DNA of 64,000 bases, taken from contig CAYOLO010000001.1 in the NCBI GenBank assembly GCA_964404855.1, positions 222,894-286,893 on the forward strand, written 5' to 3'. Of the stretch, positions 5,975-57,755 are shown piece after piece. Positions within the stretch are counted from its first letter, which is position 1; every line of letters starts with the position of its first letter. A program made the translations under genes and the position numbers. The notes beneath the pieces were generated by a model, which was given only the letters and a program-made list of their open reading frames with translations, had not been told where the DNA came from and did no database searches. The stretch is from an uncultured Gammaproteobacteria bacterium. Lineage in GTDB: Bacteria > Patescibacteriota > Microgenomatia > CAYQLK01.

Positions 5975-6039
5975 GTTATAGCCGTAAATTGTGCTAAAAT
6001 TCTTAGAATCGTTTTTGGGATACGGAATCAATTGTCTTT

Positions 6040-6650
6040 TCTTGACAATCCAAAACGTGTTTTTAGAGGAAAACACGAAAAGTCGAGGAGAGGTTTTTGG
6101 TTTGAGTTCCAACAACGAGCACATAACAATCGGAGAGGCACAGTTGACGAACATGTTGACGAGCACCGTGCATACCCTTGAGGAGTTGGCCGATATGGCT
6201 GATTCACCAAGGGCGGCGGATACCTATCGGGCATTCGCTAGTGCCGAGTGTCTCATGATGGTCGTAACCTCATCCAAGAATGTGGGCGAAGCCGCCGTCT
6301 GCGTTCCCCATTCCGGGCAGTCTGAAAGCCCCAGCGTGACTGTCGTGAAGCACCCCCGCTTCACCATCCCTGCGTCTGACTTGTTTCAGGTGATCTCGCC
6401 CGAAATGGCAAGCCGTCGCAGTCGCGAATCGCTGGCCATGAAGAGCACGCCGGTTAATCCGAAGTACTCGACGAACCATCAGGTCTTGCGGTTGCAACAG
6501 GAGAATGTTGCGAAGGTCGCAAGGCTTATGGCTGTTCTGACAGGGAAGCCGATCGAGGTCCGCTTCCAGGAAGCTGGTGGGCGCAACTTCCCTTACTTGG
6601 ACGAAGTGGTTCATCCTTAACCGGATTACGCGCCTTTAATTGGAACTGTG
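6040..6650 (+). other. GC-rich, ORF-poor island: a candidate large structured ncRNA or a foreign, pseudogenised fragment
   Basis: GC content rises sharply above both flanks. The only long frame (5991..6620) translates to a protein with no family resemblance and overlaps antisense ORFs rich in Arg, Pro and Gly. There are many local hairpins, for example a 7-bp stem at 6345-6364. A + strand intrinsic terminator follows. Confidence 0.25.
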
Positions 6651-17118: not shown

Positions 17119-17410
17119 GGTTATATTTTTCTTTTCGAGAAACAAGGTTTTTAAACTATTTTTTTAATTACATTCTTTTTTCAATCTACTTTCTTGGACG
17201 CAATTTTGGATGTTTGCTTTTTGCTAAAAGCGAACTCTGCGCAACCAAAGTTGCTTCGACCCGAGAGATTTCTTTCTTTCACTTTTTGCTCGCTCTTTTG
17301 CTAAAACAAAATCTGTGCCCACTCAAAAAAAGAGATCCAAGAAAACAGATTGAGGGATATGGGAGACAGAAAGAGATCAACAAAAGGAAAGTTTGGAGTA
17401 TTAAAAGATA

Positions 17411-17440
17411 AAAAAGAGCCCTCCTTTTTAGGGGAGGGCG
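17411..17440 (-). terminator. Intrinsic terminator: CCCTCC/GGAGGG hairpin plus U-tract on the minus strand (family member 1 of 3)
   Basis: GCCCTCC (17418-17424) pairs with GGGAGGGC, preceded on the + strand by an A-run, which is a T-run on the minus strand. It sits directly downstream of the 17457..17681 minus gene. Confidence 0.6.
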
Positions 17441-17456
17441 TGGGGTGTGAGGAGTG

Positions 17457-23863: not shown

Positions 23864-25330
23864 TTACAGGTTTAGCTGTTTTCTCCAGTTGGCGACGATT
23901 GTGCCTGTTTTGGTTTTGGCGATGCCAGTGTAGAGCGTTGGGTCTTGCAGGACGAGGCGTTGCTTCGGGCTCATTCTGGCGATGTACGAAGCAAGTTCTG
24001 GGTCTTGGTTAAGAATGTCTTCCATTCCTTTGCCTTCACGAATCGCTTGCTGTGTTAGTTTGCGGACTTTTTCGTGCGCGTCTGGGTGACCGAGGAAGGC
24101 GAGGATGATCTGAAGTGGTTCGGCCAAAATCAGACCTTTTTGTAGGTTGAGATTGGCTGACATGTTGCCTTGGTCGACTTCGAGCTTGGCGATGATACGG
24201 CTGAGTCTCTTGGAGCTGACAACGAGGTAATTGACGCTTTCGCCGTAGGTTCGACCCGAGGCAGAGTTGGTCAAATCTCTTTGGTGCTCGCTGAGCTGGT
24301 CTAGGAAAACCGTGACAAGACGGCCAATGCTGGTTTTCCAGAGACTTTTCGCGTTCTCGAGGCCGATAGGGTTTCGTTTTTGCGGCATTATCGAAGAGCC
24401 GACCTGTTCTTCTTCGAATGGTTCTCCAACTTCGCCGATTTCGGTCCGTTGCAGGTGCCTGAGGCTGTCTGAAAGATCAGCAAGGATTCCGTGTGCGATG
24501 GTTATTTCGCACATCAGACGAATCATTGGCTCGGGCGGAGCGATTTGGGTCGAGTGCTCGGCGGGTTTAAGGCCGAGAATGAAGAGGATTTCACGTTCGA
24601 ATTCCTCAGGGTCATCGAAAAAGAGTGAGGAGGCATTGTAGGCTCCAACTGAGCCTGAGAACTTGCCTTCGAGTTCTTTGGCGAGACTTTCGAGCTTTTC
24701 AATCGATTGGCCAAGCCTAACGACGAAGCCTGCGACGAAGAATCCGAAGGTGAGGGGCGAAGCGTGTTGTCCGTGAGTTCGGCCGACCTCGACTGTTTCT
24801 GCTTCGCGAGAAGCAAGTTCAATCAAAAATCGCTCGAGTTTTTTTAGTTCAGGAATGACGACTTTTATTGTCACATCCCTAAAGCGCATGGCCGTGGCGG
24901 TGTCTCTGATGTCAAAAGAAGTAGCCGGCGTGTGAACGAACGGCTTATTTTTTTTGCTCAGACGGTTTCTAATCAGGTTGACGAGGGCACGAATATCGTG
25001 CTTAATTCGGTTTTCTTCCTGATAGATTTGGTGGGTTGTGATCTGTTTGGCGGCGCGTTCAACTTGCTCAACCGCAGAAGCTGGAGCCATGCCTCGTCTG
25101 TTGAGCACAGTGACGAGAGCAAGTTCAACCTGCAGAAGGTAGCCAGTGAAGGCGTTCTCGGAGAGGTATTTGGCAACATCGGAATCCCAGTACCGATAGT
25201 CGGCGGGGGAGATGCTGTCGTAGACATCACGAGTAAGAAAGCGCGGAAGTCTGACCATCCTTTTGTCCTTGTAACGTGCGAAATTTCCAAGCTCGCTTAT
25301 TAGCGAACTATAGGTTGGCAAGGTTAGCAT
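23864..25330 (-). CDS. purB: Adenylosuccinate lyase family protein (fumarate lyase superfamily), compositionally GC-rich
   Basis: It has the 'GSSIMPQKRNPI' fumarate-lyase signature and is 488 aa. GC and codon usage (GCC, CTC, CCG, ACG) differ clearly from the surroundings. Confidence 0.8.
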   Translation of the reverse strand: MLTLPTYSSLISELGNFARYKDKRMVRLPRFLTRDVYDSISPADYRYWDSDVAKYLSENAFTGYLLQVELALVTVLNRRGMAPASAVEQVERAAKQITTHQIYQEENRIKHDIRALVNLIRNRLSKKNKPFVHTPATSFDIRDTATAMRFRDVTIKVVIPELKKLERFLIELASREAETVEVGRTHGQHASPLTFGFFVAGFVVRLGQSIEKLESLAKELEGKFSGSVGAYNASSLFFDDPEEFEREILFILGLKPAEHSTQIAPPEPMIRLMCEITIAHGILADLSDSLRHLQRTEIGEVGEPFEEEQVGSSIMPQKRNPIGLENAKSLWKTSIGRLVTVFLDQLSEHQRDLTNSASGRTYGESVNYLVVSSKRLSRIIAKLEVDQGNMSANLNLQKGLILAEPLQIILAFLGHPDAHEKVRKLTQQAIREGKGMEDILNQDPELASYIARMSPKQRLVLQDPTLYTGIAKTKTGTIVANWRKQLNL

Positions 25331-30021: not shown

Positions 30022-30354
30022 ATGAGTGAACTTACAGCCAATAATCACGATATAGCGGATACAACACAGCTTCCAGAAGAGAGGGTTGATTTTGTGCCGG
30101 AAGAAATAGTGCATTTTGAGCCAGTTTTGCCAACAATAGATATAAAAGGTGCAGAGGTTTTAGGGAATTTAGGAGAATCTCATACTGAACATATTCAGGC
30201 TGTTGGAGGAATAAATGTTGATTCTGAATCGGCTAAGGTCTTGCCAAATCATATACCTGAAACGGTATTGGTTGGAAAAGGTGATGTGGATAAATCATCA
30301 AGTTGGTTTATGGAAGTGAGAAATAGGATGTCTAAATTGAAAGGAGCGGCGTAA
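30022..30354 (+). CDS. Acidic hypothetical protein
   Basis: A 110-aa, D/E-rich ORF immediately upstream of the ATPase gene. Confidence 0.35.
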   Translation: MSELTANNHDIADTTQLPEERVDFVPEEIVHFEPVLPTIDIKGAEVLGNLGESHTEHIQAVGGINVDSESAKVLPNHIPETVLVGKGDVDKSSSWFMEVRNRMSKLKGAA

Positions 30355-30360
30355 GGGAAG

Positions 30361-32685
30361 ATGGATTTGGACTTAGCTAGTTTGATTAGCACACTACTAA
30401 CAATAATTGGAGTGGTTTTGATATTGGGTGTAACCAGTGCTGTTGGTGCGTATTTTGGGGCGATTAAGTATAGGAACAAAGATAGGGAGGAAAGATCATT
30501 AAATTTTGTTCTGCTTTCTGTAGCTGTACCAAGGGATAACGAGGTCAAAATCGATGCGATTGAGCAGATGTTTTCTTCACTTTCGGCTTTATCAGTGCCA
30601 GAAGGTTTTTTGAGTTTTCTTAAACCAAAGGATCATATTTCGTTCGAGATTGTGGCGTTACCTGGAGATATTAGATTCTATGTTTCTACGCCTAAAGAAT
30701 ATAAAGATTTATTGGTGAAGCAGATTTATGCTACTTATCCTGGAACGATGGTTCAGGAGGTCGAGGAATACAATATTTTTAATGAAACGGGGGAAGTAAG
30801 TTATGGGGCAATGAAGCTAGCTAAGGCGAATTATTTTCCGATTAAAACTTATAAAGAGCTGGTAACAGATCCTTTGTCATCACTAACATCACCTTTGGCT
30901 TCGTTGCAGGAGGGTGAGGGGGCTTGTATTCAAATATTGGTTTCTGGGGCTGATTCTAAGTGGAAAGATGCAGCCAAAGCGTTTGTGGCCAAGCAGAAAC
31001 ATGTATCGACAGACGATAAAGGTCCAAAGAGTAGTGGAGACCCAAGACAGATTGAGGCAGTTGAGTCCAAGGTGTCAAAATTGGGCTTGGAAACTTTAGT
31101 AAGAATTGTTGTCTCTAGTAATACAAAAGAAGGTTCAAAAATTCACTTCGACAATATTAAGAATGCTTTTTCACAATTTAGCTCAGACTTTAATAAGTTT
31201 TCTTCTGAGAAAGTAGGAAATAAACGAGCCTTTATGGAAGATTTTATATACAGGTATATGCCTGTAAGAGGTCGAGGGTCGATATTAAATATTGAGGAAC
31301 TTGCGAGTTTGTTCCATTTTCCAAATAAAAGTGTAGAGACACCGAATATTCACTGGCTGAATTTTAAGCGGGCTCCAACTAGTTCGAATATGGCGACGGA
31401 AGGATTACTTTTAGGCAAAAGTGTTTTTAGAGATACTGAGCGAAATGTTTACTTGGGCGATGATGATAGGAGAAGACATGTATATATTATTGGACGAACA
31501 GGAACAGGTAAAACGGAGCTACTTAAATCGATGATTTTGCAGGATATTAAGGCTGGAAAAGGTATTTGTTTTATTGATCCGCATGGTGACGCTGTTGAGG
31601 ATTTGTTAACAAAAATTCCAAAAGAAAGAGCCGAAGATGTTATATATTTTGACCCTTCTGACATGGAAAGGCCGATGGGGCTGAATATCATCGAAGCACA
31701 CACTGAAGAGCAAAAGGGAATGATTATTTCGAACTTTATTGGGCTAATGTACAAGCTTTATGATCCTCACCATCAAGGAATTGTGGGTCCGAGGCTTGAA
31801 CATGCGATTAGAAATTCAATGTTGACGGTAATGAGCATGCCAGGTGCTACATTAATTGAAACATATCGAGCTGTAACAGATTTAAATTATGTAAAAGAGA
31901 TTTTGCCAAAAGTAACTGATCCAGTAGTAAGAAGGTATTGGACGGACGAGATAGCCAATACAAACGAATATCACAGGTCGGAGACATTGGGATATTTTGC
32001 ATCAAAATTCGGCAGATTTGTGACTGATAGAATGATTAGAAACATTATTGGCCAGTCCGAGAGTGCTTTTGATATTCGTGAGGTAATGGATAATCAAAAA
32101 ATATTACTAATTAATCTTTCTAAAGGGAAGATTACTCCAGAAAATTCACAATTTTTGGGACTTATTTTGGTACCAAAAATACTAACTGCAGCGATGAGCA
32201 GGCAAGATATGCCGGAGGCTGATAGAAAAGACTTTTATTTGTATGTAGATGAGTTTCAGAATTTTGCGACTGAAACATTTGCTGAAATTTTGTCGGAGGC
32301 GAGAAAATATAGGTTGAACTTGATTGTCGCTAACCAGTTTATTAATCAGATGGAAGAGAATGTGAAAAATGCGGTGTTTGGTAACGTGGGTACCTTAATA
32401 TCTTTTAGAGTTGGTACTGAAGATGCGAATGTGTTAACCCATGAGTTTAAGGGGTTATTTAATGAGTTTGATTTGACCAATGTGGCGAGGTTTCAGACAT
32501 ATGTTCGGACGATTTACCGTAATGAACCACTTGAGCCGTTTTCGATGGATACTACAAGAGATTTAAGTAAGGATGTAAAAAATAACGAATTAGCTGAAAT
32601 TATTAGACAGTTGTCGAGACAGAAATTTGGCAAGGATGTTACAGTGCTCGAGCCTGAGATTGTGCAGAGAGCAAAGCTTGGTTAA
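30361..32685 (+). CDS. TM-anchored P-loop ATPase of the VirB4/TraC / HerA-FtsK superfamily (T4SS-like)
   Basis: It has an N-terminal TM helix, a long middle domain, Walker A 'GRTGTGKTE' and a Walker B-like 'FYLYVDEFQNFATE'. At 774 aa it is comparable in size to Gram-positive VirB4 homologues. Confidence 0.5.
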   Translation: MDLDLASLISTLLTIIGVVLILGVTSAVGAYFGAIKYRNKDREERSLNFVLLSVAVPRDNEVKIDAIEQMFSSLSALSVPEGFLSFLKPKDHISFEIVALPGDIRFYVSTPKEYKDLLVKQIYATYPGTMVQEVEEYNIFNETGEVSYGAMKLAKANYFPIKTYKELVTDPLSSLTSPLASLQEGEGACIQILVSGADSKWKDAAKAFVAKQKHVSTDDKGPKSSGDPRQIEAVESKVSKLGLETLVRIVVSSNTKEGSKIHFDNIKNAFSQFSSDFNKFSSEKVGNKRAFMEDFIYRYMPVRGRGSILNIEELASLFHFPNKSVETPNIHWLNFKRAPTSSNMATEGLLLGKSVFRDTERNVYLGDDDRRRHVYIIGRTGTGKTELLKSMILQDIKAGKGICFIDPHGDAVEDLLTKIPKERAEDVIYFDPSDMERPMGLNIIEAHTEEQKGMIISNFIGLMYKLYDPHHQGIVGPRLEHAIRNSMLTVMSMPGATLIETYRAVTDLNYVKEILPKVTDPVVRRYWTDEIANTNEYHRSETLGYFASKFGRFVTDRMIRNIIGQSESAFDIREVMDNQKILLINLSKGKITPENSQFLGLILVPKILTAAMSRQDMPEADRKDFYLYVDEFQNFATETFAEILSEARKYRLNLIVANQFINQMEENVKNAVFGNVGTLISFRVGTEDANVLTHEFKGLFNEFDLTNVARFQTYVRTIYRNEPLEPFSMDTTRDLSKDVKNNELAEIIRQLSRQKFGKDVTVLEPEIVQRAKLG

Positions 32686-32704
32686 TAAAAGTAAGGAAAA
32701 AATG

Positions 32705-32778
32705 TGGGCGCGCTTGGACTTGAACCAAGGACATCGACCTTATAAGAGTCGCGCTCTAACCAACTGAGCTACGCGCCC
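32705..32778 (-). tRNA. tRNA-Ile, anticodon UAU
   Basis: The reverse complement GGGCGCGTAGCTCAGTTGGTTAGAGCGCGACTCTTATAAGGTCGATGTCCTTGGTTCAAGTCCAAGCGCGCCCA folds as a cloverleaf with a 7-bp acceptor and a 5-bp T-stem. The anticodon loop is CTTATAA. CCA is not encoded. Confidence 0.8.
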
Positions 32779-32849
32779 ATGACTTCCTTCTGTTTGGGTA
32801 AAGGAGATTTTACTTCAAAAATCTGCCTGTGACAAAGATGTAAAATATA

Positions 32850-33041
32850 TTGGAACTAATAAATATGCTGAAACGTTACACAATTTTTGCAATGATTGGC
32901 TTGGCGGGAATCGGTGGATTGTTTTTGATTTTTTACCTTAGCTGGTTTTGGAGACTGTTTTTGGTACCAATTATGGTAATTGTTGGGTACGGGCTGATTT
33001 CGTCAGAGCTAGATAAAACAAGAGGGAAGAAGGATAAGTAA
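32850..33041 (+). CDS. Small membrane protein (2 TM), hypothetical
   Basis: A 63-aa hydrophobic ORF, which might be spurious. Confidence 0.3.
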   Translation: MELINMLKRYTIFAMIGLAGIGGLFLIFYLSWFWRLFLVPIMVIVGYGLISSELDKTRGKKDK

Positions 33042-33093
33042 GTACCTTTACTCCATAAAATAACAGAAAATACAGAAGTATATGAGCTTAAGT

Positions 33094-33990
33094 TTAAAGC
33101 TCTTCGAGTTTAACTTTTTCCGAATTTTTCTTTGGTTCGATTAAACCAAGGTAGCGTTCAGTTGTTGATAGTCTTTTGTGTCCAGCAAGTTTGGAGATAA
33201 GTACAACAGATGTTCCTCTTGAAAGGTGGTGGTGTACCCAAGTGTGGCGTAAGTCGTTGACCTTGGCGTGGGCGATACCGGCTTTTTTGAAGTAACGATC
33301 GATTGCTGTACGGATGTTGCGAATAAGAAGAGGTTTGTTGTTTTTGGTAACAAACAAGTTGTCATCAGGTTTGGCTTCTTTGCGTTCTTTAAGATAGCGT
33401 TTAACTGCTTCTTCGGCAGCAGTATTTAGTGGAATTGTACGCTCAGTGTGGCCTTCAAATGGGCGAATATAGATTCTGCCTTCTTTTTTGCCTTCGGAAA
33501 GAAAAATATCTTCGATTCTGATTCTGGCGAGTTCTCCGATACGCATACCGGTTTGAAGCAAAAGTTCAATTACAGCAGAAATTCTTGCATCACTGCGAGC
33601 AGCATCACGAAGAGCGCGATACTCAAGCGGCGTGAGAACTCGAGGCTGTTTGGTTTCGAATTTGGGGTGTGCGACCATTGCCGAAGGGTCATCAGTGATT
33701 ATTTCTTCTATTTTTAGAAAACGGAAGAATGTTTTAGTTGAATTAAGCTTTCTTGAAACGCTTTTTGGAGTGTATCCTTCTTTGCCGAGCTTGGCTAAAA
33801 AGGCATTAATATCAGCTGTTGAGACTTCGTGAACATGGTTTTTTTGCAGTTCTTGTAGGAATGCTACAAGCTGCTCAATATCTTTACCGTAAGCTAGAAC
33901 CGTAGCGGATGCTCGGTTTTTACCTCGAAGGTGGTCAATAAATGTTTGATGGGCATTTTTAAGGGCAATTGGATCTGATTTTGCGGCCAT
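33094..33990 (-). CDS. Tyrosine site-specific recombinase (XerC/XerD-size phage-integrase family)
   Basis: The C-terminal catalytic region '…LRHTWVHHHLSRGTSVVLISKLAGHKRLSTTERY' carries the R, H-x-x-R and Y residues. At 298 aa it is XerC/D-like in size. It lies between tRNA loci. Confidence 0.8.
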   Translation of the reverse strand: MAAKSDPIALKNAHQTFIDHLRGKNRASATVLAYGKDIEQLVAFLQELQKNHVHEVSTADINAFLAKLGKEGYTPKSVSRKLNSTKTFFRFLKIEEIITDDPSAMVAHPKFETKQPRVLTPLEYRALRDAARSDARISAVIELLLQTGMRIGELARIRIEDIFLSEGKKEGRIYIRPFEGHTERTIPLNTAAEEAVKRYLKERKEAKPDDNLFVTKNNKPLLIRNIRTAIDRYFKKAGIAHAKVNDLRHTWVHHHLSRGTSVVLISKLAGHKRLSTTERYLGLIEPKKNSEKVKLEEL

Positions 33991-34124
33991 AATTAATTTT
34001 TAAGTAATAATCAAATTTCAGGGTAAATTAGCTTTGATTGCCCTGGGGCATTATGAACTATGGGATAGTGTAGCTTATGTATAACAGTACTGTCAAGTAT
34101 GATTTTGGTTAATAATTTTTACGT

Positions 34125-34493
34125 TTGGTGCTTAAAAGATACAATGGAGATATGAGATCAAAATGGGTAATACAGTTAATAATGATAGCGTTTGGTTTGT
34201 GGCTAATAATTGTTTTTACTAGGCAGTTTTTAGAGTTTTTTGATAGTGGGGATAGAATTGAACAGACTCAAACAGAAATGCAAAAACTTGAGGCTGAAAA
34301 TGCCAAATTGAAGGAAGAAAAGGCTTATAGGCAGACTAATTTTTTTATTGAAAAAGAGGCTAGAGAGAAGCTGGGGTATGGCATTGAAGGAGAATCAACG
34401 GTGATTTTTAAACAAGAGCAGGCAACACCTGAGGCTCAGGTAAAAACTGAAGAGATTCCTAATTGGAAAAAGTGGCTTGATTTCTTGTTTTAA
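34125..34493 (+). CDS. FtsB/DivIC-like septum formation initiator (TM plus coiled coil)
   Basis: It has a single TM, a coiled coil (KLEAENAKLKEEK) and 'EKEAREKLGYGIEGE', which matches the septum-formation-initiator family motif. Confidence 0.6.
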   Translation: MVLKRYNGDMRSKWVIQLIMIAFGLWLIIVFTRQFLEFFDSGDRIEQTQTEMQKLEAENAKLKEEKAYRQTNFFIEKEAREKLGYGIEGESTVIFKQEQATPEAQVKTEEIPNWKKWLDFLF

Positions 34494-34550
34494 TTGACGG
34501 TTTTAGCTTCAAGTGATAGAATTCTGCGACGGATAGAATAACTTTAATAT

Positions 34551-34622
34551 AGCGGTGTGGTGTACCGGGAACACGCCAGGCTCATAATCTGGAGATACGT
34601 AGTTCGACTCTACGCGCCGCAA
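34551..34622 (+). tRNA. tRNA with CAU anticodon (Met/Ile2-lysidine class), with an A1·A72 acceptor mismatch
   Basis: The cloverleaf has acceptor AGCGGTG / CGCCGCA, D-stem GTGT/ACAC, anticodon stem CCAGG/TCTGG with loop CTCATAA, and T-arm CGTAG-TTCGACT-CTACG. U8, A14, U33 and A58 are present. Confidence 0.6.
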
Positions 34623-34635
34623 CAAGTAAGGAAAA

Positions 34636-34663
34636 ACCGACTCTAAAAGGGTCGGTTTTTTTT
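34636..34663 (+). terminator. Intrinsic terminator downstream of the tRNA
   Basis: ACCGAC…GTCGGT hairpin followed by TTTTTTTT. Confidence 0.55.
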
Positions 34664-34678
34664 GTTAAGATTTAGAAA

Positions 34679-34891
34679 ATGGGTGTAGAAAAAACTAAAA
34701 TTTGTCCGAAATGTAAGTCAAAAATGGAAGAGGGTGTTGTGCCTGACAGATCTGAAGATTGGCAAAAATATAATTTACAGTGGGGTAAGAAAGTGACGAG
34801 GTTGGGTTTTGGGTTAAAAGATACGACTGATTTAAGAGCTTTTAAGTGTGAAATTTGCGGTTATATTGAGCTATACACTAAAAAGGTTTAA
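34679..34891 (+). CDS. Small zinc-ribbon protein
   Basis: A 70-aa ORF with CPKC…CEIC Cys pairs. Confidence 0.45.
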   Translation: MGVEKTKICPKCKSKMEEGVVPDRSEDWQKYNLQWGKKVTRLGFGLKDTTDLRAFKCEICGYIELYTKKV

Positions 34892-34892
34892 G

Positions 34893-34965
34893 TGGCGACG
34901 GTTGGGCTCGAACCAACGACCGCGGGTTTATGAATCCCGTGCTCTACCAACTGAGCTACGCCGCC
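34893..34965 (-). tRNA. tRNA with CAU anticodon (elongator Met or Ile2 class; G1-C72 paired)
   Basis: The reverse complement GGCGGCGTAGCTCAGTTGGTAGAGCACGGGATTCATAAACCCGCGGTCGTTGGTTCGAGCCCAACCGTCGCCA forms a cloverleaf with T-stem GTTGG/CCAAC and anticodon loop TTCATAA. Confidence 0.75.
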
Positions 34966-42502: not shown

Positions 42503-42703
42503 TAACCTTTTAAGTTAAAGAGATTATAGGTTCTCGCTCAAATTCGCAAAATAATTTGAGTCCCCCAAAATTTTAAGTGAGTGCTCGTTTTCTGGTGAAA
42601 ACTACACCTCGGTTTTGATTCTCAAAAACTCAGTTTGAGCTACAAGCCTTCTTTAATGTGAAACACGCAAAAAAGGAACACTCCTAACTCTCGCAAACTC
42701 AAG

Positions 42704-42731
42704 AAAAAACCCTCCTTTTGAGGGGAGGGTT
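42704..42731 (-). terminator. Intrinsic terminator: CCCTCC/GGAGGG hairpin family member 2
   Basis: The + strand reads AAAAAACCCTCCTTTTGAGGGGAGGGTT, directly downstream of the 42749..42997 minus gene. Confidence 0.6.
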
Positions 42732-42748
42732 GTGGTAAGCGATTAGCT

Positions 42749-43675: not shown

Positions 43676-44740
43676 ATGATTCAATATCAGCCGAAATTTA
43701 CGATTAATAATCAGATTCTTACTAATATCGCCAATATTGTGGCGGCTAAAGAATTTATTGAAGATGCACCACTTATTCCTGCATGGGAAGCTAAGTTTAG
43801 GCGTGAGGCTATGGAGCGAACTGTTCATCATGGAACGCATTTGGAAGGCAATAAGTTGAATATGGAACAGGCCAAAGAAGTGCTCGATGGAAGGCAGATT
43901 TTGGCAAAACAGGATGATATTCAAGACATTATTAACTATCGGGAGGTTCTTAGTTATATCGATAGTGTGGCTAAAAAGGAAGGAAAATTGACTGAGGAAG
44001 TATTACTTAAAATTCATAGTTTAACGGTTGATAAGTTGTTGCCTGACGACCAAAAAGGGAAGTATCGTACTTTGCAGGTTTATGTGACGAACAGTCGAAC
44101 TGGAGAGGTGTCTTTTACACCACCAAAACCTGAAGAGGTGGCTGGTGAAATTAGATATTTTTTGGATTGGCTTAATTCAAAGGAATCGGAAAATATTCAT
44201 CCGACTCTAAAAGCCGGTGTGGTTCACTATAATTTGGCCAGAATTCATCCGTTTGTTGATGGTAATGGGAGAACTTCTAGGGCGTGTGCAACATTAGTTT
44301 TGTTCTTGTCTGGCTATGATATTAAAAAGTTTTTTGCGTTGGAAGAGTATTACGATATGGATGCAGCTAGTTACTACCAAGCTTTACAGGAAACAAGTAA
44401 TCAGATAGTTGTGAAAGAATCTGAGCGTGATTTGACTGGGTTTTTGGAATATTTTACGAAAGGTCTGGCGGTAGAGCTTATGCGTGTACGAGAAAGAGTT
44501 CAGCATCTCTCTAGTGATTTGAGGCTCAAAAAACGTGTGGGACAGTTGGCTCTGACTGAGAGACAGGCAAAGATTGTGGAATATATTCAATCGTATGGAA
44601 AAATTACAAACAGAGAGTGGAGATCTTTGTTGCCTGACTATTCTGACGATACGGTTTTGAGGGATTTGAAGGATTTGATTAAGAAAAAAATCATTAAGAA
44701 AAAAGGAATGACAAAGTCGGCTGCTTACGTGATGAAATAA
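43676..44740 (+). CDS. Fic-family protein (AMPylation fold) with C-terminal winged-helix domain
   Basis: It has the canonical Fic motif 'HPFVDGNGRTSRA' and a C-terminal HTH-like region. Confidence 0.85.
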   Translation: MIQYQPKFTINNQILTNIANIVAAKEFIEDAPLIPAWEAKFRREAMERTVHHGTHLEGNKLNMEQAKEVLDGRQILAKQDDIQDIINYREVLSYIDSVAKKEGKLTEEVLLKIHSLTVDKLLPDDQKGKYRTLQVYVTNSRTGEVSFTPPKPEEVAGEIRYFLDWLNSKESENIHPTLKAGVVHYNLARIHPFVDGNGRTSRACATLVLFLSGYDIKKFFALEEYYDMDAASYYQALQETSNQIVVKESERDLTGFLEYFTKGLAVELMRVRERVQHLSSDLRLKKRVGQLALTERQAKIVEYIQSYGKITNREWRSLLPDYSDDTVLRDLKDLIKKKIIKKKGMTKSAAYVMK

Positions 44741-44770
44741 AAAAAAGACCCTCCTTTTTAGGGGAGGGTG
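44741..44770 (-). terminator. Intrinsic terminator: CCCTCC/GGAGGG hairpin family member 3, between convergent genes
   Basis: The + strand reads AAAAAAGACCCTCCTTTTTAGGGGAGGGTG. The minus-strand reading gives a hairpin plus T-run. It is 5 nt after the fic stop. Confidence 0.6.
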
Positions 44771-44791
44771 TGAGGTGAGTTGATGTTTTGT

Positions 44792-51638: not shown

Positions 51639-54600
51639 GTGTTGTTTTATTATTTGGGGCAGTATATGGCTGCCTCAAAAAATGATTATCCAGTATATAG
51701 ATTGACGCTTAGTCGCAAGAGTAAGTTTGGCGGGGCGTTAAAGAAATTGGTCGTTTTGAATGTTTTGTCTTTGTTAATTTTTTCTTCACTTTTTGCCCCA
51801 CTTATACAATTTAATATTTTGAACTCTAGACCATTAGATGGGCTGTTTGAAGCTATGGCGGCCGAGCAAAGTTTTGACGATGAGTCTCCACAGACTGATA
51901 AAGAAATCGTTATTATCAGAGAGGTTTGTGGAATATCAGGTTCGGTTGAGGTGACTTTTGCGTGGAAAGAAATTGATAACGCTTCGAAATACAGTTTAGA
52001 GATTTCGAGAATGGCTGAATTTGACCCTGCATCGACATTAACAGCAGTAACTTCGTCACTGGAACACACAGTAACATTGGAGGCAGATGTAAGGTTTAGA
52101 GTTAGAGTGGTTGGCGAAGGTCAAAATGGCGAGACAAAATCGTCACTGGCTGCTACCTATTACAACACTGATTGTGCACAAGAAAAAGAGACAAATAGAT
52201 TGGCAGCTTATTCCAAAACGTTAAGTGAAAATATTGGAGCGGGTGGTAGTGGTGCAGTCGCTGGGGAAAAACTGATTGCTCAGTCTAGCTCAATGACTTG
52301 TACTATGAATCCCGATAATGTGTTTAGTATTAATGTAGGACCGTCGACGGTAGTTACTAATTTTAGTGTCAATATTAATAATCTTGATCAGGGTGAATTA
52401 TATGTTGGCGCAACTTATGTGGATGGTACGGTAAGGTTTTTTAAGCAACAGCCAAACGCGGAGCTAACTTTGTCGGGCAATGCCAGAATTCGTGCTGGAG
52501 CAGATCAGGGATATTATAATTCCTCGTCTCAGGGTGGAAATAAGACAATGTATTTTTCTATCTATACAGATGGGGGGCATGTAGCCCAACAGAATGCATA
52601 TACGCTTAGCGCTTTTTATGTTCAGACAGTTGTTAATGGTCAGCAAGTAGGAAGCAATAAACAGTGTAATGGTGCTTCAAGCGGTTTGGGTGGACTAGTA
52701 ATTCATACTGTAGCCAGTGCTACGCCAACACCAACACCAACAAGGACGCCAACACCAACAAGAACACCTACGCCTACGCCAACAACAACGGCTGCAACAC
52801 CTACACCAACAAGAACACCTACGCCTACGCCAACAACAACGGCTGCAACACCTACACCAACAACTCCAGTTAGTGCGATGACTTGTAAAATGAATCCTGA
52901 TACGACATTTAATTTGACAGTTGGATCATCTCCGGTTGAGCAGAATTTTAATATTACTGTTTCAAATCTTGAAAAAGGAGAGTTGTATGTTGGGGCTACA
53001 TATGTTGATGGGACTGTAAGATTTTTCAAACAACAGCCGAATGCAGAATTGTCGTTATCTGGCAACGCTAGGATTAAATCGTCATCTGATCAAGGATTTT
53101 ATAACTCTCCAAGTGCTGGAGGAAGTAAGACTTTTAACTTTTCAATCTCATTAGACTCTAATCATGTTGCACAGAGTAGGGCATATGAACTTAGCGCTTT
53201 TTATGTTCAGACAGTTGTTAATGGTCAGCAAGTAGGAAGCAATAAACAGTGTAATGGTGCTTCAAGCGGTTTGGGTGGAATGGTGATTAATACCCTTGCT
53301 GGACCAACTCCGACTCCGACACCAACACCGCCTTCAGTTGGTACTTTTTCGATTAGTTATTCTGGGGTGTCTTCAGTTGAATCATTAGATCGTGGTCAAA
53401 ACAAAACATTTAGTGTTATTTATAAAGATACAGGTGGTTGGGGAGGGAAACCTGTAGAGATTTATGTTAACGATAGTGCTTTGACGAGTAATAATACAGC
53501 TTCTTTGGACAACGGAAATGTCTATTTGTCTTTTGTTCAAAAAACGATTTATCCAACGACAACTCAACAGTCTTTGTCTTTTACATTGAGCGCGAACGAG
53601 TATGCGGCCGCAAAGGACTTTGTTTTTAAGTTACAGGGTTTATATGTCGCGTCTTCTCTAGTTCTACCGTCATCATCGTCAACTGGTTTTGCGGTATCGA
53701 ATCAGTTTACCGCTCGAGTTGCTGCCCCTGTTAGTCCAACACCTACTGCGACCAGCGTTCAAAACACGCCTACTCCTACAACTACGGTTCAAAACACGCC
53801 TACTCCTACTACCTTTGTTTCAAATATGGCCTGTGTGATGAATCCGGCTAGTGGGGTATTTAATATTCAGGCAAGTTCGACTCAACAGACTCTTTCGCCG
53901 TTTACAATAACGGCTAATAATTTGGACAGAGGAGAATTGTACATTGGAGTCAACTATGAGGAAGCAGGAGTGTACAAGTTTTTTAATTATGAACCGAACA
54001 ACACAATTATCTTATCGGATCAGCCTAATTTTTCTGCAACGATAAGATCGGAAGATACGGGTTACTACAACTCTCCAGGAGGTGGTTCAAAAACATTTAG
54101 GTTTAATATTATTCTGAGTGCAAATCATCCAGGTGCAACTCCAGCTTATCGTTTACCGGAAATCTATATTCAAACTGTAGATCGAAGCAGTGGAACAGCT
54201 CAGCAGATTGGTAGCAACAAGAACTGTACGACTAATGGTATTACCGTAAACACAATCGGTGCACCAACCCCAACAGCGACTAATGCACCGACTTCGACGC
54301 CGACTCCAACAGTCACTCCGTCAGCTAATATTGCCTGTTCGTTAAGTGTTACGGCTACTAATTTTGTTCGTGGAACCGCGGCAAGTAGTTTGGGAAATAT
54401 AGTGATGAGTGGAGGAGTAAGTGGAACAGCATATTATATTGGCTTAATTAGTGGAGTAAATAACACTCTTTTTGCAAATCAACCTGGAAATAAAATTGAA
54501 ATTGGAGATAAAGATTTTAATCCATTAAAAGTTTATCCACAGGCAACTACATTCTCTGGTTCTAGCGGTCAGACTGCAGTGTTTATTGATCCGTCAAATA

Positions 54601-57600
54601 CGGTTTTAAGTGGAAGTTACAGTTTTGAACTGGGCTTGTTTACACAATCAGCTGTTTTGGTTAAGAATTGTGGAAATCCTGTTACTCTGACTGTTTCGGA
54701 TGGGGGATCTAATCCGACACCACTAGGCAAAGTAACACTTGAAACATGTAGTAATGGCAAGGTTAACGCTACTTTGGACTGGTCGCTTTGGTCCTCGACA
54801 ATTGGATCAACTCCAACAAAATATATTTGGGAATATAATTATGGGGGATTAATTGGGACAGGAGAGAGTGGGTATACAACCAGTGAAAGTTTTTCAAGAA
54901 CAGCAAATATAACAGGGCTTACTTCTCAATCAGAAATTGCTTGGAGAGCTAAGGCGTATAACGGTACTACTTTGTTAGCAACCTCTCCGGTTTTTACTCA
55001 CACAATAATATATTGTGAGCCACCAGTAGCTACAGGAACGACTGGTGTAGGTGATTCAATAATGTTGGGAGCAAAGAGTACTTTGGAAGCAAATATTCCA
55101 GGAATTGATATTGATGCGGTTGTGAGTCGAGGGGCAGCAGCAGGAATTTCAGTATTACAAGCAAAACTGGATTCTGGAACCCTTGGAGCCAAAGTAATAG
55201 TTGGATTAGGAACTAATAATGGAATTACTGATTCTCAAATTGATCAAATTGCTTCAATAGTTGCGTCTCCGAGAAAACTTTTCTTGATTACTGTAAAAGT
55301 TCCTCAAGGCCATGAATCTTCATCAAACAACACGATTATAAATGGAGCCAGTAGGCATGGGGCTACATTAATTGATTGGTATTCGAATTCGATTAATCAT
55401 CCCGAATATTTTGCGTCTGACGGAATACATTTAACTGGCCAAGGTATTAGTGCTTATTCAAACCTAGTTTTGGCTGCATTAGGCTCAGCTCCAGTGACTA
55501 CACCACCAGGCGAGTTTACAGTTTTGAATAGAGTGTTTAATTGTGTTGATGCGAATAATATAAATATTGTTTTCACTTGGTCTCAGTCATCAGGAGCTGT
55601 CAGATATGATTTGTATTGGGAGAGGACTCCAAATGGTACGGCCTCGTTTGATATTAGAGACGAACAATATCTTGCTGGCTCAAGTACAACTCTTAGCCAT
55701 TCCAACTCAACATTTGCTCCGAACCAGAGACTTTGGTATGACGTAAAAGCCGTAAGTGCCAGCGGTGGAAGTGTTTGGTCCAAGAATGGTACATATTATG
55801 TCGACTTGCCAACTTGTTCATCTCCAACCGCAACGCCGACAAATACTCCAGTACCAACTGCAACAGCTACGCCAACGAAAACCCCAACAAATGTACCAAC
55901 CGCAACGCCGACAAATACTCCAGTACCAACGGCTACCCCAACTCCACAAATTGCTATGTCTTGCTCGATTAATCCAACATTGCTTGCATTAAAAACTGGC
56001 CAAATATTGCCATTTACAGTGACGGTAAATAATCTTGATCAAGGAGAATTGTATGTAGGTGCTTACTATTTTGACGATCCAAATGGACACTTCTTTAAGC
56101 TTCAAAGCGGAATAGTTACACTTAGTGACCAAGCCAGAATTGTTTCGGCTGATGCAAGTGCAGGGTATTATCAATCAGCTTCAGGTGGCGGATCGAGACA
56201 GTTTGCGTTTAAGATTGAGGCTGATGCTAATGGCCCAGTTGGTCAATATACTTTAAGAGAATTTTTTATTCAGACAGTTAGGAATGGACAGTTTATTCGA
56301 AATACAAATTGTGTAACTGGAGGAACTCAATTAGTTATTAATGTTAGTGCAGGCATAGTGCCAACAAATACTCCTACAAAAACTCCAACGCCAACCGCAA
56401 CGCCTCAACCTGGAACGCCCACAAATACTCCTGCAGTTAATACTCCTACACCAACCATAACGAGTACGCCTGGAAACTTTAAGCCAGTAATTAGTGATAC
56501 TTCTGCAAAATGTAGTTCAATTAGCAACGCAGAAATCTTAGTTAATTGGGGAGCTGTTAGTGGTATCGAGGGCTTTGGAATTGAAATGACGACTGCAGCG
56601 TTTAGCCCATCTGACTTTAGTTACTTTAGGTACCCATCAGATTGGAGCAATTTAACAAGTCTATATCAACAGACAAGAATTAGTGATTATGGTTTTATTT
56701 CGAATACAAATTATCAGATTAGGATAACGGCAATTAAATCTGATGGAACTCAATATCAATCCGATGTTCAAACTGTACAAACTGGTGACTGTGCGAAATT
56801 ATCAGCTGATGTCGGTGGCCTGAATGGTTCGGCGTCTAACAAGCTAGTGCCAATGACAATTGGTGGAGATGTTGTACCAAACGCCTTCGTGGCAGTTGCT
56901 TTGTATAACAACGGTTGGGAGAGGCCTGTTCAAATTGAGGTTAAGGGAGTTGGCGGGGTTTATCAGCCAATAACTGCTTCTGGTCAGGAAGTACAAATTG
57001 GTGCAGGAGTATTTGTTAAGGCTAAAGCGTCTGGAACACTTACTTCGCCGTTTGCAAAAAACGCACCTTCATATCGAGAGATATCTTATCGAACAGTGTA
57101 CTTTGATGCTTATGCAACGGCAGATGCGCAGGTTGGTAGCGATCCGATTTTTATGATTAGAATTAAAGATGGGGCTGTTTATTATGATGGTGCTAGTTAC
57201 GGGGCTGCAATTCCGATTGCGAAAAAAGCTACATATAATGGAACAAAAGAGTCGGGGTTTGAGTTTATGAAGGTATTGACTGGTGGAGCTAACGGAGGAG
57301 GGTGTAGAGGGTCGAGTTGTTACGAGGTGAATTACAATCCTCAAAGGGCAAAATTACTGGTAGGAATGTGGGGAACGGAATCTGGTTGGAGTACTGTGGG
57401 TACCAGTGGGTGTGACCAGTTTGGATGTCACTCAGAATCAATGTACTCATTCGGTGCAACCGATTGGGACAGATGGGGTGGCGAGACAGGGTTTTATGAT
57501 AGTAGTTTGCCGAATAGTGGAAGGGGTAATTTTGAGACAGAAACACGGGCTGTTGATAGGATGTTTACTCAATCGTTTAACGACCCTTCGTCAGGATCGT

Positions 57601-57755
57601 TCCGAATGTATGCGCCAACATATTTTGGCCCATGGAATTTAGGGGATGATAATCCAACATATGGTGGAAACTGGTGCACGCATCCATCAAATGGATATAG
57701 AGCTGCTTATAATACGGGACTACTTAACGACTTAGGGCCTAACTGTTACGATTAA
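51639..57755 (+). CDS. Giant (2038 aa) secreted/surface multidomain protein with Pro/Thr-rich linkers, repeated Cys-containing modules, FN3-like modules and an SGNH (GDSL) hydrolase domain
   Basis: It has an N-terminal TM/signal. PT linkers recur at about 52720-52870, 53290-53330, 53740-53820, 54250-54310, 55820-55940 and 56360-56470. Four paralogous modules of about 145 aa begin at about 52290, 52880, 53825 and 55960. The SGNH motifs are GDSIM, GLGTNNG and DGIHLT, at about 55040-55480. The C-terminal roughly 420 aa form a Cys/Trp/Gly-rich domain. Confidence 0.7.
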   Translation: MLFYYLGQYMAASKNDYPVYRLTLSRKSKFGGALKKLVVLNVLSLLIFSSLFAPLIQFNILNSRPLDGLFEAMAAEQSFDDESPQTDKEIVIIREVCGISGSVEVTFAWKEIDNASKYSLEISRMAEFDPASTLTAVTSSLEHTVTLEADVRFRVRVVGEGQNGETKSSLAATYYNTDCAQEKETNRLAAYSKTLSENIGAGGSGAVAGEKLIAQSSSMTCTMNPDNVFSINVGPSTVVTNFSVNINNLDQGELYVGATYVDGTVRFFKQQPNAELTLSGNARIRAGADQGYYNSSSQGGNKTMYFSIYTDGGHVAQQNAYTLSAFYVQTVVNGQQVGSNKQCNGASSGLGGLVIHTVASATPTPTPTRTPTPTRTPTPTPTTTAATPTPTRTPTPTPTTTAATPTPTTPVSAMTCKMNPDTTFNLTVGSSPVEQNFNITVSNLEKGELYVGATYVDGTVRFFKQQPNAELSLSGNARIKSSSDQGFYNSPSAGGSKTFNFSISLDSNHVAQSRAYELSAFYVQTVVNGQQVGSNKQCNGASSGLGGMVINTLAGPTPTPTPTPPSVGTFSISYSGVSSVESLDRGQNKTFSVIYKDTGGWGGKPVEIYVNDSALTSNNTASLDNGNVYLSFVQKTIYPTTTQQSLSFTLSANEYAAAKDFVFKLQGLYVASSLVLPSSSSTGFAVSNQFTARVAAPVSPTPTATSVQNTPTPTTTVQNTPTPTTFVSNMACVMNPASGVFNIQASSTQQTLSPFTITANNLDRGELYIGVNYEEAGVYKFFNYEPNNTIILSDQPNFSATIRSEDTGYYNSPGGGSKTFRFNIILSANHPGATPAYRLPEIYIQTVDRSSGTAQQIGSNKNCTTNGITVNTIGAPTPTATNAPTSTPTPTVTPSANIACSLSVTATNFVRGTAASSLGNIVMSGGVSGTAYYIGLISGVNNTLFANQPGNKIEIGDKDFNPLKVYPQATTFSGSSGQTAVFIDPSNTVLSGSYSFELGLFTQSAVLVKNCGNPVTLTVSDGGSNPTPLGKVTLETCSNGKVNATLDWSLWSSTIGSTPTKYIWEYNYGGLIGTGESGYTTSESFSRTANITGLTSQSEIAWRAKAYNGTTLLATSPVFTHTIIYCEPPVATGTTGVGDSIMLGAKSTLEANIPGIDIDAVVSRGAAAGISVLQAKLDSGTLGAKVIVGLGTNNGITDSQIDQIASIVASPRKLFLITVKVPQGHESSSNNTIINGASRHGATLIDWYSNSINHPEYFASDGIHLTGQGISAYSNLVLAALGSAPVTTPPGEFTVLNRVFNCVDANNINIVFTWSQSSGAVRYDLYWERTPNGTASFDIRDEQYLAGSSTTLSHSNSTFAPNQRLWYDVKAVSASGGSVWSKNGTYYVDLPTCSSPTATPTNTPVPTATATPTKTPTNVPTATPTNTPVPTATPTPQIAMSCSINPTLLALKTGQILPFTVTVNNLDQGELYVGAYYFDDPNGHFFKLQSGIVTLSDQARIVSADASAGYYQSASGGGSRQFAFKIEADANGPVGQYTLREFFIQTVRNGQFIRNTNCVTGGTQLVINVSAGIVPTNTPTKTPTPTATPQPGTPTNTPAVNTPTPTITSTPGNFKPVISDTSAKCSSISNAEILVNWGAVSGIEGFGIEMTTAAFSPSDFSYFRYPSDWSNLTSLYQQTRISDYGFISNTNYQIRITAIKSDGTQYQSDVQTVQTGDCAKLSADVGGLNGSASNKLVPMTIGGDVVPNAFVAVALYNNGWERPVQIEVKGVGGVYQPITASGQEVQIGAGVFVKAKASGTLTSPFAKNAPSYREISYRTVYFDAYATADAQVGSDPIFMIRIKDGAVYYDGASYGAAIPIAKKATYNGTKESGFEFMKVLTGGANGGGCRGSSCYEVNYNPQRAKLLVGMWGTESGWSTVGTSGCDQFGCHSESMYSFGATDWDRWGGETGFYDSSLPNSGRGNFETETRAVDRMFTQSFNDPSSGSFRMYAPTYFGPWNLGDDNPTYGGNWCTHPSNGYRAAYNTGLLNDLGPNCYD
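52285..53325 (+). repeat. Two tandem near-identical copies, about 450 bp each, of a protein module inside the giant gene. A third copy is at about 53823-54260 and a fourth at about 55957-56350.
   Basis: Long identical nucleotide runs are shared, for example 'agcgctttttatgttcagacagttgttaatggtcagcaagtaggaagcaataaacagtgtaatggtgcttcaagcggtttgggtgga' at about 52607-52696 and about 53195-53284. Confidence 0.7.
52758..52859 (+). repeat. Perfect 2 x 51-nt tandem repeat encoding the PT linker (RTPTPTPTTTAATPTPT x2)
   Basis: The unit 'acaagaacacctacgcctacgccaacaacaacggctgcaacacctacacca' occurs at 52758 and again at 52809. Confidence 0.75.

Follow-up and report, generated by a model that had tools for sequence, protein, structure and literature searches.

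Does an ATPase of type IV secretion appearance, lying beside tRNA genes and a tyrosine recombinase on a Candidatus Curtissbacteria (CPR/Patescibacteria) chromosome, mark the remnant of a mobile element, or is it an ordinary part of that chromosome? The original prediction, made for the 64-kb stretch of DNA analysed here (hereafter the window), was a decayed or minimal integrative or conjugative element that had entered at the 3' end of a tRNA gene and whose integrase was the recombinase. The genes on which it was built are all there (a T4CP/VirB4-type ATPase, tRNAs and a recombinase; Table 1), but the mobile element did not hold up. We consider instead, with a probability of roughly 0.6 for the explanation as a whole, that the locus is vertically inherited chromosome and that the ATPase descends from a coupling protein (T4CP, VirD4/TrwB type) of monoderm-host conjugation systems and likely serves a chromosomal CPR type IV secretion system (T4SS). 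CPR/Patescibacteria represent a large share of bacterial diversity and most of their conserved genes are without assigned function; our literature search for DUF8128, the N-terminal domain of this ATPase, found no paper, and the family has so far figured in the literature only in counts of VirD4 homologs, possibly exapted.

Table 1. Features of the ATPase locus, with positions counted along the window.
Feature	Position	Strand	Basis and remarks
Small partner ORF, 110 aa	30022-30354	+	ORF
DUF8128/T4CP-type ATPase, 774 aa, whole gene	30361-32685	+	ORF
N-terminal transmembrane helix, residues ~5-38	30373-30474	+	AF2 helix 5-38, hydrophobic sequence
DUF8128 domain, residues ~47-320, VirB4-N-terminal-domain-like alpha/beta fold	30499-31320	+	
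RecA-like ATPase domain, residues ~345-735	31393-32565	+	
Walker A GRTGTGKT, residues 378-385	31492-31515	+	G378, T380, G381, G383 and K384 invariant, 73 sequences
All-alpha insertion within the RecA-like domain, residues ~449-577	31705-32091	+	
Walker B YVDEFQN, residues 628-634	32242-32262	+	Y628-N634 invariant, 73 sequences
tRNA-Ile(UAU)	32704-32778	-	ARAGORN, Rfam
Two-TM ORF, 63 aa (gene callers: start 32865, 58 aa)	32850-33041	+	ORF
Divergent Xer-like tyrosine recombinase, 298 aa	33094-33990	-	Phage_integrase E 3e-31 and SAM-like N-domain; convergent with the ATPase
DivIC/FtsB-like septum protein	34125-34493	+	PF04977, E 2.4e-10; divergent from xer
tRNA-Met(CAU) number 1	34551-34623	+	ARAGORN, Rfam
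DUF6487 zinc-ribbon ORF, 70 aa	34679-34891	+	Pfam
tRNA-Met(CAU) number 2	34892-34965	-	ARAGORN, Rfam

The ATPase and its small partner

The expected N-terminal membrane anchor was recovered in the AF2 model, which predicts a single TM helix followed by a large domain foreign to canonical T4CPs, and, at the C-terminus, two helices (residues 742-771). A conserved linker at residues 319-339 is disordered. A basic stretch (KYRNKDREER) directly C-terminal of the TM helix suggests that the body of the protein is cytoplasmic. The GRTGTGKT Walker A and DEFQNF Walker B-like motifs noted at the outset are also genuine, being invariant across 73 aligned homologs, with D630/E631 as the acidic pair of the Walker B motif (YVDEFQNF).

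The ATPase passes the cut-offs of three Pfam coupling-protein models, T4SS-DNA_transf (37.7 bits, cut-off 20.1), TrwB_AAD_bind (33.4 bits, cut-off 20.5) and TraG-D_C (24.8 bits, cut-off 22), and falls far under those of the NCBIfam equivalogs TraD, TrbC, VirD4 and CD1115, so that it can be called a T4CP at the superfamily/Pfam level only. Its motor has a TrwB-like fold in which a Walker A/B-bearing NBD is combined with an all-alpha domain. The VirB4/TraC-class resemblance originally proposed is correct for the fold, which is of the T4CP/VirB4 class, and for the N-terminal domain, which gives the protein a VirB4-like two-domain (NTD and CTD) architecture; it does not extend to the VirB4 models themselves, since AAA_10 and CagE_TrbE_VirB gave no match, TIGR00929 reached 24.5 bits against a cut-off of 643.1 (NCBIfam) and BLASTP against the AAA_10 VirB4 of pBM69 gave an E-value of 0.07. 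Nor does the protein look like a housekeeping FtsK/HerA homologue: it did not qualify as an FtsK_SpoIIIE motor domain, it lacks the FtsK C-terminal gamma winged-helix (KOPS/XerD binding) and polytopic N-terminal domain, and it contains no HAS-barrel.

The preceding small ORF ends 6 nt short of the ATPase start codon. Its product has an acidic N-terminus of low complexity, its C-terminus bears the motif ...KSSSWFMEVRNRMSKLKGAA, and neither Pfam nor NCBIfam holds a match for it; it is kept in relatives at 80-86% identity. An ORF built in this way, with a low-complexity N-terminus and a C-terminal S-x-[WR]-W-L...R..K helix, directly precedes the ATPase gene in the same orientation in 29 loci according to BLAST clustering and in ~40 when C-termini are inspected. 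Partner and ATPase form a two-gene unit conserved across CPR.

Synteny, recombinase and the mobile-element question

Nearly all CPR genomes encode the ATPase family, which is conserved over its full length, as strongly as FtsH in the same loci. Among the 50 loci with at least 5 kb of downstream sequence, 25 carry a Xer gene downstream of the ATPase, on the opposite strand in all but one (24/25); by unbiased clustering the synteny was found in 37 of 77 loci, among them Dojkabacteria and a single Saccharibacteria locus, with DivIC following Xer in 25. In the species loci surveyed (80), tRNA-Ile(UAU) lies ~0-2 kb downstream of the ATPase in ~50, mostly on the + strand, and the tRNA-Met pair recurs downstream in ~20. 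tRNA-Ile(UAU) is a conserved downstream neighbour across Microgenomates; this lineage carries it in the orientation opposite to that of most loci, and close relatives differ in its orientation. Gene order is otherwise kept in close relatives and the synteny spans classes; the association of the ATPase with tRNA-Ile(UAU), the Xer-like recombinase and DivIC is ancestral.

Three genes of this segment had been overlooked, namely the two-TM ORF, the DivIC/FtsB-like gene and the DUF6487 ORF. The first is limited to this lineage and has no family match in Pfam or NCBIfam; the last is enclosed by the two tRNA-Met genes, whose 3' ends face it, and is missing in a relative at 80% identity. Rfam searches of the whole window and of the spacers of close relatives returned nothing but tRNAs; a GC-rich stretch at ~5.98-6.64 kb had no Rfam match even at E 1, and a folding z-score of only -2.4.

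The recombinase is Xer-like but not canonical. Its PDB matches are XerA-like 4a8e and XerD 1a0p, and its best NCBIfam scores, XerD (166.6 bits), XerC (160.9) and XerA (152.3), all miss the respective cut-offs (329.6, 335 and 220). In 38 syntenic homologs, the catalytic columns R150, R248, H271 and Y280 are conserved, Asn (N245) stands invariantly in place of His-II, and various residues (T, E, P and others) occupy the canonical hairpin Lys position, so the complete R-K-H-R-H/W-Y catalytic set is absent. A k-mer enrichment search for a dif-like site, covering 300 bp to either side of xer at 37 loci, retrieved only -10-like TATAAT words and pieces of tRNA. Neither the window nor any of the 80 loci contains a second copy of the ATPase or of Xer.

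The layout that had suggested an integration site is real: the tRNA-Ile(UAU) 3' end lies 18-19 nt past the ATPase stop codon (20 in the earlier count), and the tyrosine recombinase and two further tRNA(CAU) genes follow within 2.3 kb (Pfam, ARAGORN, Rfam). An element integrating at the 3' end of tRNA-Ile, however, would require a different geometry. Even when 3 mismatches in 24-25 nt are allowed, the window contains no second copy of the 3' end of any of the three tRNAs, no repeat family touches the tRNAs, and no direct repeats bound a cargo either here or in 55 species loci. The only exact k-mer match of at least 12 nt, AAGTAAGGAAAAA at 32689 and 34624, was rejected as an att site, because this 13-mer is A-rich and ~0.2-0.8 such matches are expected by chance. 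In related genomes the genes show no insertion polymorphism; housekeeping genes flank the locus, and GC (0.38-0.41) is like that of the surroundings.

Conjugation partners are likewise missing nearby. No relaxase or MPF (VirB4) gene occurs within 10 genes on either side of the ATPase in the window; across 84 sources, a VirB4-like gene lies within 10 kb of a family ATPase in one, a relaxase in none, and TcpC was not found near the family. Searches of plasmids and phages by tblastn gave only matches of at most 30% identity and no member of the close family, and a scan of IMG/VR retrieved nothing.

A remnant element would still account for some observations: the family's distant relatives are coupling proteins of conjugative plasmids, the tRNA is inverted between close relatives, and in some relatives the ATPase-Xer spacer contains small tRNA-associated scars, with nested tRNA ends in one locus (L042) and a 150-nt duplication plus a degenerate copy of the tRNA 3' end in another (L087). 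The L087 duplication, around tRNA-Ile, was considered as an att scar and rejected, as it bounds no cargo and is absent from the L088 contig carrying the same ATPase; it may be an assembly artefact of a strain mixture. Against the ancestral synteny, the native composition and a recombinase conserved jointly with DivIC, we regard an integrative or conjugative remnant as very improbable. The ATPase is a core, vertically inherited CPR gene, and the tRNAs and recombinase are its neighbours, neither att sites nor the integrase of an element.

Possible functions

A single helix anchors the ATPase in the membrane, and the VirB4-NTD-like DUF8128 lies between this anchor and the motor. We propose that six copies may form a ring at the cytoplasmic side of the membrane, where ATP would drive the reception or threading of a polymer, be it nucleic acid or protein. 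The small partner, by way of its C-terminal amphipathic helix, could be an adaptor. The ATPase would most likely work with the type IV secretion apparatus that CPR chromosomes encode at another site, much as other T4CPs serve a T4SS although their genes lie far from virB4. Some points count against this coupling role: canonical T4CPs have no VirB4-like NTD and as a rule two TM helices, and CPR genomes are mostly without relaxases, so that the ancestral substrate is gone. In Southlakia epibionticum, T4SS genes were reported to be essential for epibiotic growth and a T4CP homolog, the putative DUF8128 ortholog, non-essential (PMC12102498), which disfavours an obligatory T4SS role.

The recurrence of a convergent Xer beside the ATPase, followed by DivIC, raises another possibility, that the exapted coupling ATPase substitutes for FtsK as a division-site DNA translocase acting with the atypical Xer and DivIC/FtsB in dimer resolution and segregation. 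T4CPs and FtsK belong to one hexameric translocase superfamily (PMC12857230), and because the Xer clade is non-canonical, with Asn for His-II and no conserved hairpin Lys, a different mode of activation is conceivable. TM7x has an annotated ftsK. We consider this substitution unlikely, and slightly more so its elaboration, in which a coupling protein captured early in CPR evolution replaced or supplemented FtsK as a chromosome-handling motor within a septal, CPR-specific module with the partner, Xer and DivIC.

By analogy with the archaeal Ced system, the ATPase could instead be a nucleic-acid import motor that takes up host DNA or RNA, with or without a T4SS pilus, and feeds a nucleotide-auxotrophic epibiont. 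Its near-universal presence in CPR and the scarcity of relaxases would suit such a role, and, according to one report, a cultivated Patescibacterium feeds on RNA of its host and shows T4SS-like tubes where the two meet (bioRxiv 10.64898/2026.06.21.733656). The NCBIfam matches to the DNA-import ATPases CedB (3e-06) and CedD (4e-05), however, are weak, lie mainly in the P-loop region and fall far under the cut-offs (26 bits vs 700), and the ATPase has no linked gene for an uptake channel; import seems to us as doubtful as the replacement of FtsK, and service to a T4SS remains our preferred reading.

Comparison with known systems

Three features of this family came to light here: the VirB4-like N-domain, the conserved small partner gene and the ancestral link with tRNA-Ile(UAU), an atypical Xer and DivIC. 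Partner, neighbours and domain boundaries provide concrete handles for experiments in genetically tractable Saccharibacteria. For genome scanning, the locus is a caution that a T4SS ATPase with a tRNA and a tyrosine recombinase can be plain conserved chromosome and not an island.

Members of the T4CP family (VirD4/TrwB/TraD/DotL) usually have two TM helices and no VirB4-like NTD, whereas the CPR ATPase has one helix and an additional ~275-residue VirB4-NTD-like DUF8128, and is chromosomal, lineage-wide, vertically inherited and unlinked to relaxase or MPF genes. A relaxase-adjacent DUF87 domain-containing protein of Bacillus plasmids is homologous to it over the full length, N-terminal domain included, and has an identical domain order (WP_003349917.1 of B. 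methanolicus pBM69, 25% identity over 691 aa, E 6e-46). Further relatives occur on haloarchaeal, Sulfolobus and Streptomyces plasmids and as gp156 of Bacillus phage G. Identity to the plasmid relatives is only 24-30%, and these sit in conjugation clusters beside Replic_Relax, TcpC and AAA_10 VirB4, whereas housekeeping genes surround the CPR gene.

VirB4 proteins as a rule owe their anchorage to VirB3 and not to a TM helix of their own; compared with VirB4 (TrwK of R388, Thermoanaerobacter VirB4), the CPR ATPase has no VirB3, VirB6 or VirB8 neighbours. HerA, DptH (DndH) and the HerA-associated defence ATPases differ from it in their HAS-barrel, which it lacks, in its membrane anchor and in their partners (NurA, Sir2, DUF4297, Dnd), none of which is near it; such defence genes are patchily distributed, whereas the CPR family behaves as a conserved core gene. 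With FtsK/SpoIIIE and XerCD-dif it shares a setting, being likewise a membrane-anchored member of the hexameric-translocase superfamily whose gene has a Xer-like recombinase gene and a divisome gene as neighbours.

Identity of the ATPase and its small partner protein

The ATPase combines a membrane anchor, a hydrophobic N-terminal helix (residues ~5-38), with an intact P-loop (Walker A GRTGTGKT, residues 378-385; Walker B YVDEFQN, residues 628-634), and it is conserved over its whole length (mean column identity 75-76%) under strong purifying selection. In Pfam HMM searches it scored above the cut-off for T4SS-DNA_transf, TrwB_AAD_bind, DUF87 and TraG-D_C and below it for FtsK_SpoIIIE, a pattern that groups it, at the level of sequence models, with coupling proteins and HerA. 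NCBIfam matches were weak and partial for TraD, TrbC and CD1115-type VirD4 and faint for CedB, CedD and VirB4, all far under the equivalog cut-offs, and among proteins of solved structure DotL and TrwB are closest in sequence. Over 7,799 significant homologs turned up in the database. The top 120 (59-100% identity, full length), which belong to Curtiss-, Davies- and Beckwithbacteria, Saccharimonadia and unclassified Patescibacteria, have without exception the precomputed N-terminal PF26449 (DUF8128). This domain, found in ~2,070 representative clusters (E <= 1e-3), is N-terminal in every case, in proteins mostly of 800-860 aa. The family is already catalogued, by Pfam as DUF8128, by NCBI, which names the cluster mates from Candidatus Curtissbacteria 'type IV secretory system conjugative DNA transfer family protein', and in published counts (PMC12102498); a literature search found no paper mentioning DUF8128, and the family is without prior characterisation.

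A tblastn search of plasmids with the ATPase yielded 350 records, all at <=30% identity, 50 of which extend over 80% or more of the query and take in the N-domain (hosts: Bacillus/Priestia, haloarchaea, Sulfolobus and Streptomyces); gp156 of Bacillus phage G is a similarly distant relative. The homolog on Bacillus methanolicus pBM69 (E 6e-46, 25% identity over 691 aa) lies directly 5' of a Replic_Relax gene, in a cluster that also encodes TcpC and a separate AAA_10 VirB4, to which the ATPase has no significant similarity (E 0.07). Given these plasmid homologs, the pBM69 context and the dissimilarity to VirB4, the ancestor of the family was the coupling protein of monoderm-type conjugation systems rather than their VirB4. 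The fold of the ATPase is of the T4CP/VirB4 class, and the original reading is partly supported.

Directly 5' of the ATPase gene, on the same strand, a protein of ~145 aa recurs in 29 loci by BLAST and in ~40 by inspection, always in this position. Its N-terminus is of low complexity, and its C-terminus bears a motif such as 'SSWRWLAEWCIRRLK', within a helix of the pattern S-x-[WR]-W-L-[AS]-x-W-x-x-R-x-x-K, often ending in 'KAA'. The 110-aa ORF of the window ends in 'KSSSWFMEVRNRMSKLKGAA' and is a diverged member. Pfam and NCBIfam searches with the ORF gave no match, and the partner is a small-protein family without earlier description. Since it recurs directly 5' in 29 to ~40 loci, small ORF and ATPase would form a conserved functional unit.

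Chromosomal setting of the locus

All features first listed, namely the anchored ATPase with its Walker motifs, the recombinase and three tRNA genes, are present, together with three further ORFs.

Coordinates of features in the window and of equivalent spacers in related loci
Feature	Position	Strand	Remark
Small partner ORF, 110 aa	30022-30354	+	stop 6 nt 5' of ATPase ORF
ATPase ORF, 774 aa	30361-32685	+	stop codon 18-19 nt from tRNA-Ile 3' end
tRNA-Ile(UAU)	32704-32778	-	ARAGORN and Rfam
Tyrosine recombinase, 298 aa	33094-33990	-
DivIC/FtsB-like gene	34125-34493		not in original prediction
Two-TM ORF, 63 aa	same interval		not in original prediction
tRNA-Met(CAU) 1	34551-34623	+	ARAGORN and Rfam
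DUF6487 zinc-ribbon ORF	between both tRNA-Met genes		not in original prediction
tRNA-Met(CAU) 2	34892-34965	-	ARAGORN and Rfam
ATPase-to-Xer spacer	32686-33093; L087:10326-10900; L088:7591-7960; L089:7633-8060; L042:7836-8070
13-mer AAGTAAGGAAAAA	32689-32701; 34624-34636		just 3' of ATPase stop; just 3' of tRNA-Met 1
GC-rich region	~5980-6640
Hairpin element	17410-17447; 42701-42738; 44740-44777		at gene ends
Adenylosuccinate-lyase-like gene	23864-25330	-	minority strand
2,038-aa ORF	51639-57755	+

The recombinase (Phage_integrase plus SAM-like N-domain) best matches XerD, XerC and XerA in NCBIfam, at about half the equivalog cut-offs, and its nearest solved structures are the Pyrococcus XerA-like 4a8e and XerD. 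Of the catalytic residues, the 38 syntenic homologs retain Arg-I, Arg-II, His-III and Tyr; the His-II position holds an invariant Asn (NDLR; NDLRH), the residue at the canonical beta-hairpin Lys position varies, and an invariant Lys directly follows His-III (GHK(R)). The recombinase belongs to a divergent Xer-like clade, conserved with DivIC, and is not a phage-type integrase.

In 80 species-representative loci (ATPase at 45-64% identity), an Xer homolog lies 3' of the ATPase in 25 of the 50 whose downstream sequence extends for 5 kb or more, convergent with it in 24 of the 25, as in the window. Clustering independent of the window genes recovered Xer in 37/77 loci, followed by DivIC in 25; tRNA-Ile(UAU) lies just 3' of the ATPase in ~50 loci and the tRNA-Met(CAU) pair recurs in ~20. 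Woesebacteria keep the entire block through TrpRS, tRNA_bind, FtsH, 5'-3' exonuclease and glycosyltransferase.

The integrative or conjugative remnant at a tRNA, as originally proposed, is contradicted by this synteny and by several further observations. In relatives whose ATPase is 80-86% identical, gene order is preserved to either side, with no insertion polymorphism; GC content is unremarkable; and the ten flanking genes per side have housekeeping functions (on one side transketolase, PfkB, aldolase, DsbA and malic enzyme; on the other TrpRS, FtsH, Fpg, RecF and DNA ligase). The expected att repeats matching tRNA 3' ends were not found in the window, and among 55 loci with tRNA-Ile(UAU) extra tRNA-end copies occur solely in L042, where they lie within 100 bp and enclose no cargo. 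No close family members were found on plasmids, phages or IMG/VR contigs; across 84 sources, neither relaxase nor TcpC was found close to the ATPase gene, and only one source has a VirB4-like gene within 10 kb. The recombinase, also considered as integrase of an island at the tRNA-Ile 3' end, was rejected, since it lies on the wrong, 5' side of this minus-strand tRNA. The locus is conserved chromosome, and an island remnant is unsupported.

Side observations on the tRNAs and the window

The ATPase-to-Xer spacer is a hotspot for small tRNA rearrangements. The tRNA-Ile(UAU) is on the minus strand in the window and L087, and on the plus strand in L089 (an 80% identity relative) and most species. 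Although its ATPase protein is the same as that of L087, L088 lacks an intact tRNA-Ile and has only tRNA-like fragments. In L087 a 150-nt direct repeat (99% identity; possibly an assembly artefact) surrounds the intact tRNA-Ile and a degenerate tRNA 3'-end copy, and in L042 old 5' and 3' tRNA-end copies flank the intact tRNA. Two direct copies of AAGTAAGGAAAAA, A-rich and near chance expectation, enclose tRNA-Ile, the small TM ORF, xer, divIC and tRNA-Met. In Microgenomates, tRNA-Ile(UAU) is tightly linked to the ATPase gene 3' end (the window and 55 related loci). Most bacteria read AUA through a lysidine-modified CAU tRNA, so the mode of AUA decoding here and the unusual stability of the linkage could be of interest.

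Elsewhere, the 2,038-aa ORF starts with a signal or TM segment, contains several repeated ~190-aa internal modules and probably encodes a giant surface protein; the largest DNA repeat families of the window arise from its long Thr/Pro-rich linkers, and GC skew falls to ~0.05 across it. The three copies of the hairpin AAAAAAGAGCCCTCCTTTTTAGGGGAGGG(C/T)GTG resemble a shared motif of terminator-like or REP-like type. The GC-rich region (48% against ~37% for the genome) is covered solely by overlapping, doubtfully coding ORFs on both strands; its folding z-score is -2.4 and Rfam gave no family even at E 1. The adenylosuccinate-lyase-like gene (51% GC, the window maximum, with reduced GC skew) may have been acquired horizontally. 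Many public MAG records with the CPR-specific ATPase (related loci L005-L084) bear titles such as 'uncultured Gammaproteobacteria', 'Pseudomonadales', 'Bathyarchaeia', 'Ignavibacteriaceae' or 'Limisphaerales'; as their gene content is that of CPR, mislabelled taxonomy or contaminated bins are the probable cause.

Proposed function and comparison with canonical T4CPs

The ATPase, an orphan with a conserved partner, would assemble at the membrane into a hexameric ring that receives or translocates a polymer substrate at the expense of ATP, most likely serving a CPR chromosomal T4SS encoded elsewhere. In CPR, 5,713 VirD4-like homologs were counted in 2,918 of 3,035 genomes, only 148 of them near virB4; the Southlakia homolog was reported as non-essential, and exaptation is a possibility stated by the authors (PMC12102498). 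Southlakia cannot dispense with the T4SS itself (PMC12857230). An FtsK-like role, together with the adjacent Xer and DivIC, is suggested by the synteny of the three genes; however, the ATPase fold, the convergent ATPase/Xer orientation, the extension of synteny into housekeeping genes, the failure to find a dif signal beside xer and the annotation of ftsK in TM7x make it improbable. The faint CedB and CedD matches would fit a Ced-like nucleic-acid import motor, which we likewise consider unlikely.

Relative to canonical T4CPs, the ATPase is a distinct variant: it has a single TM helix and a VirB4-like NTD, stands as an orphan on the chromosome, has a core, lineage-wide distribution and is accompanied by a dedicated small partner.
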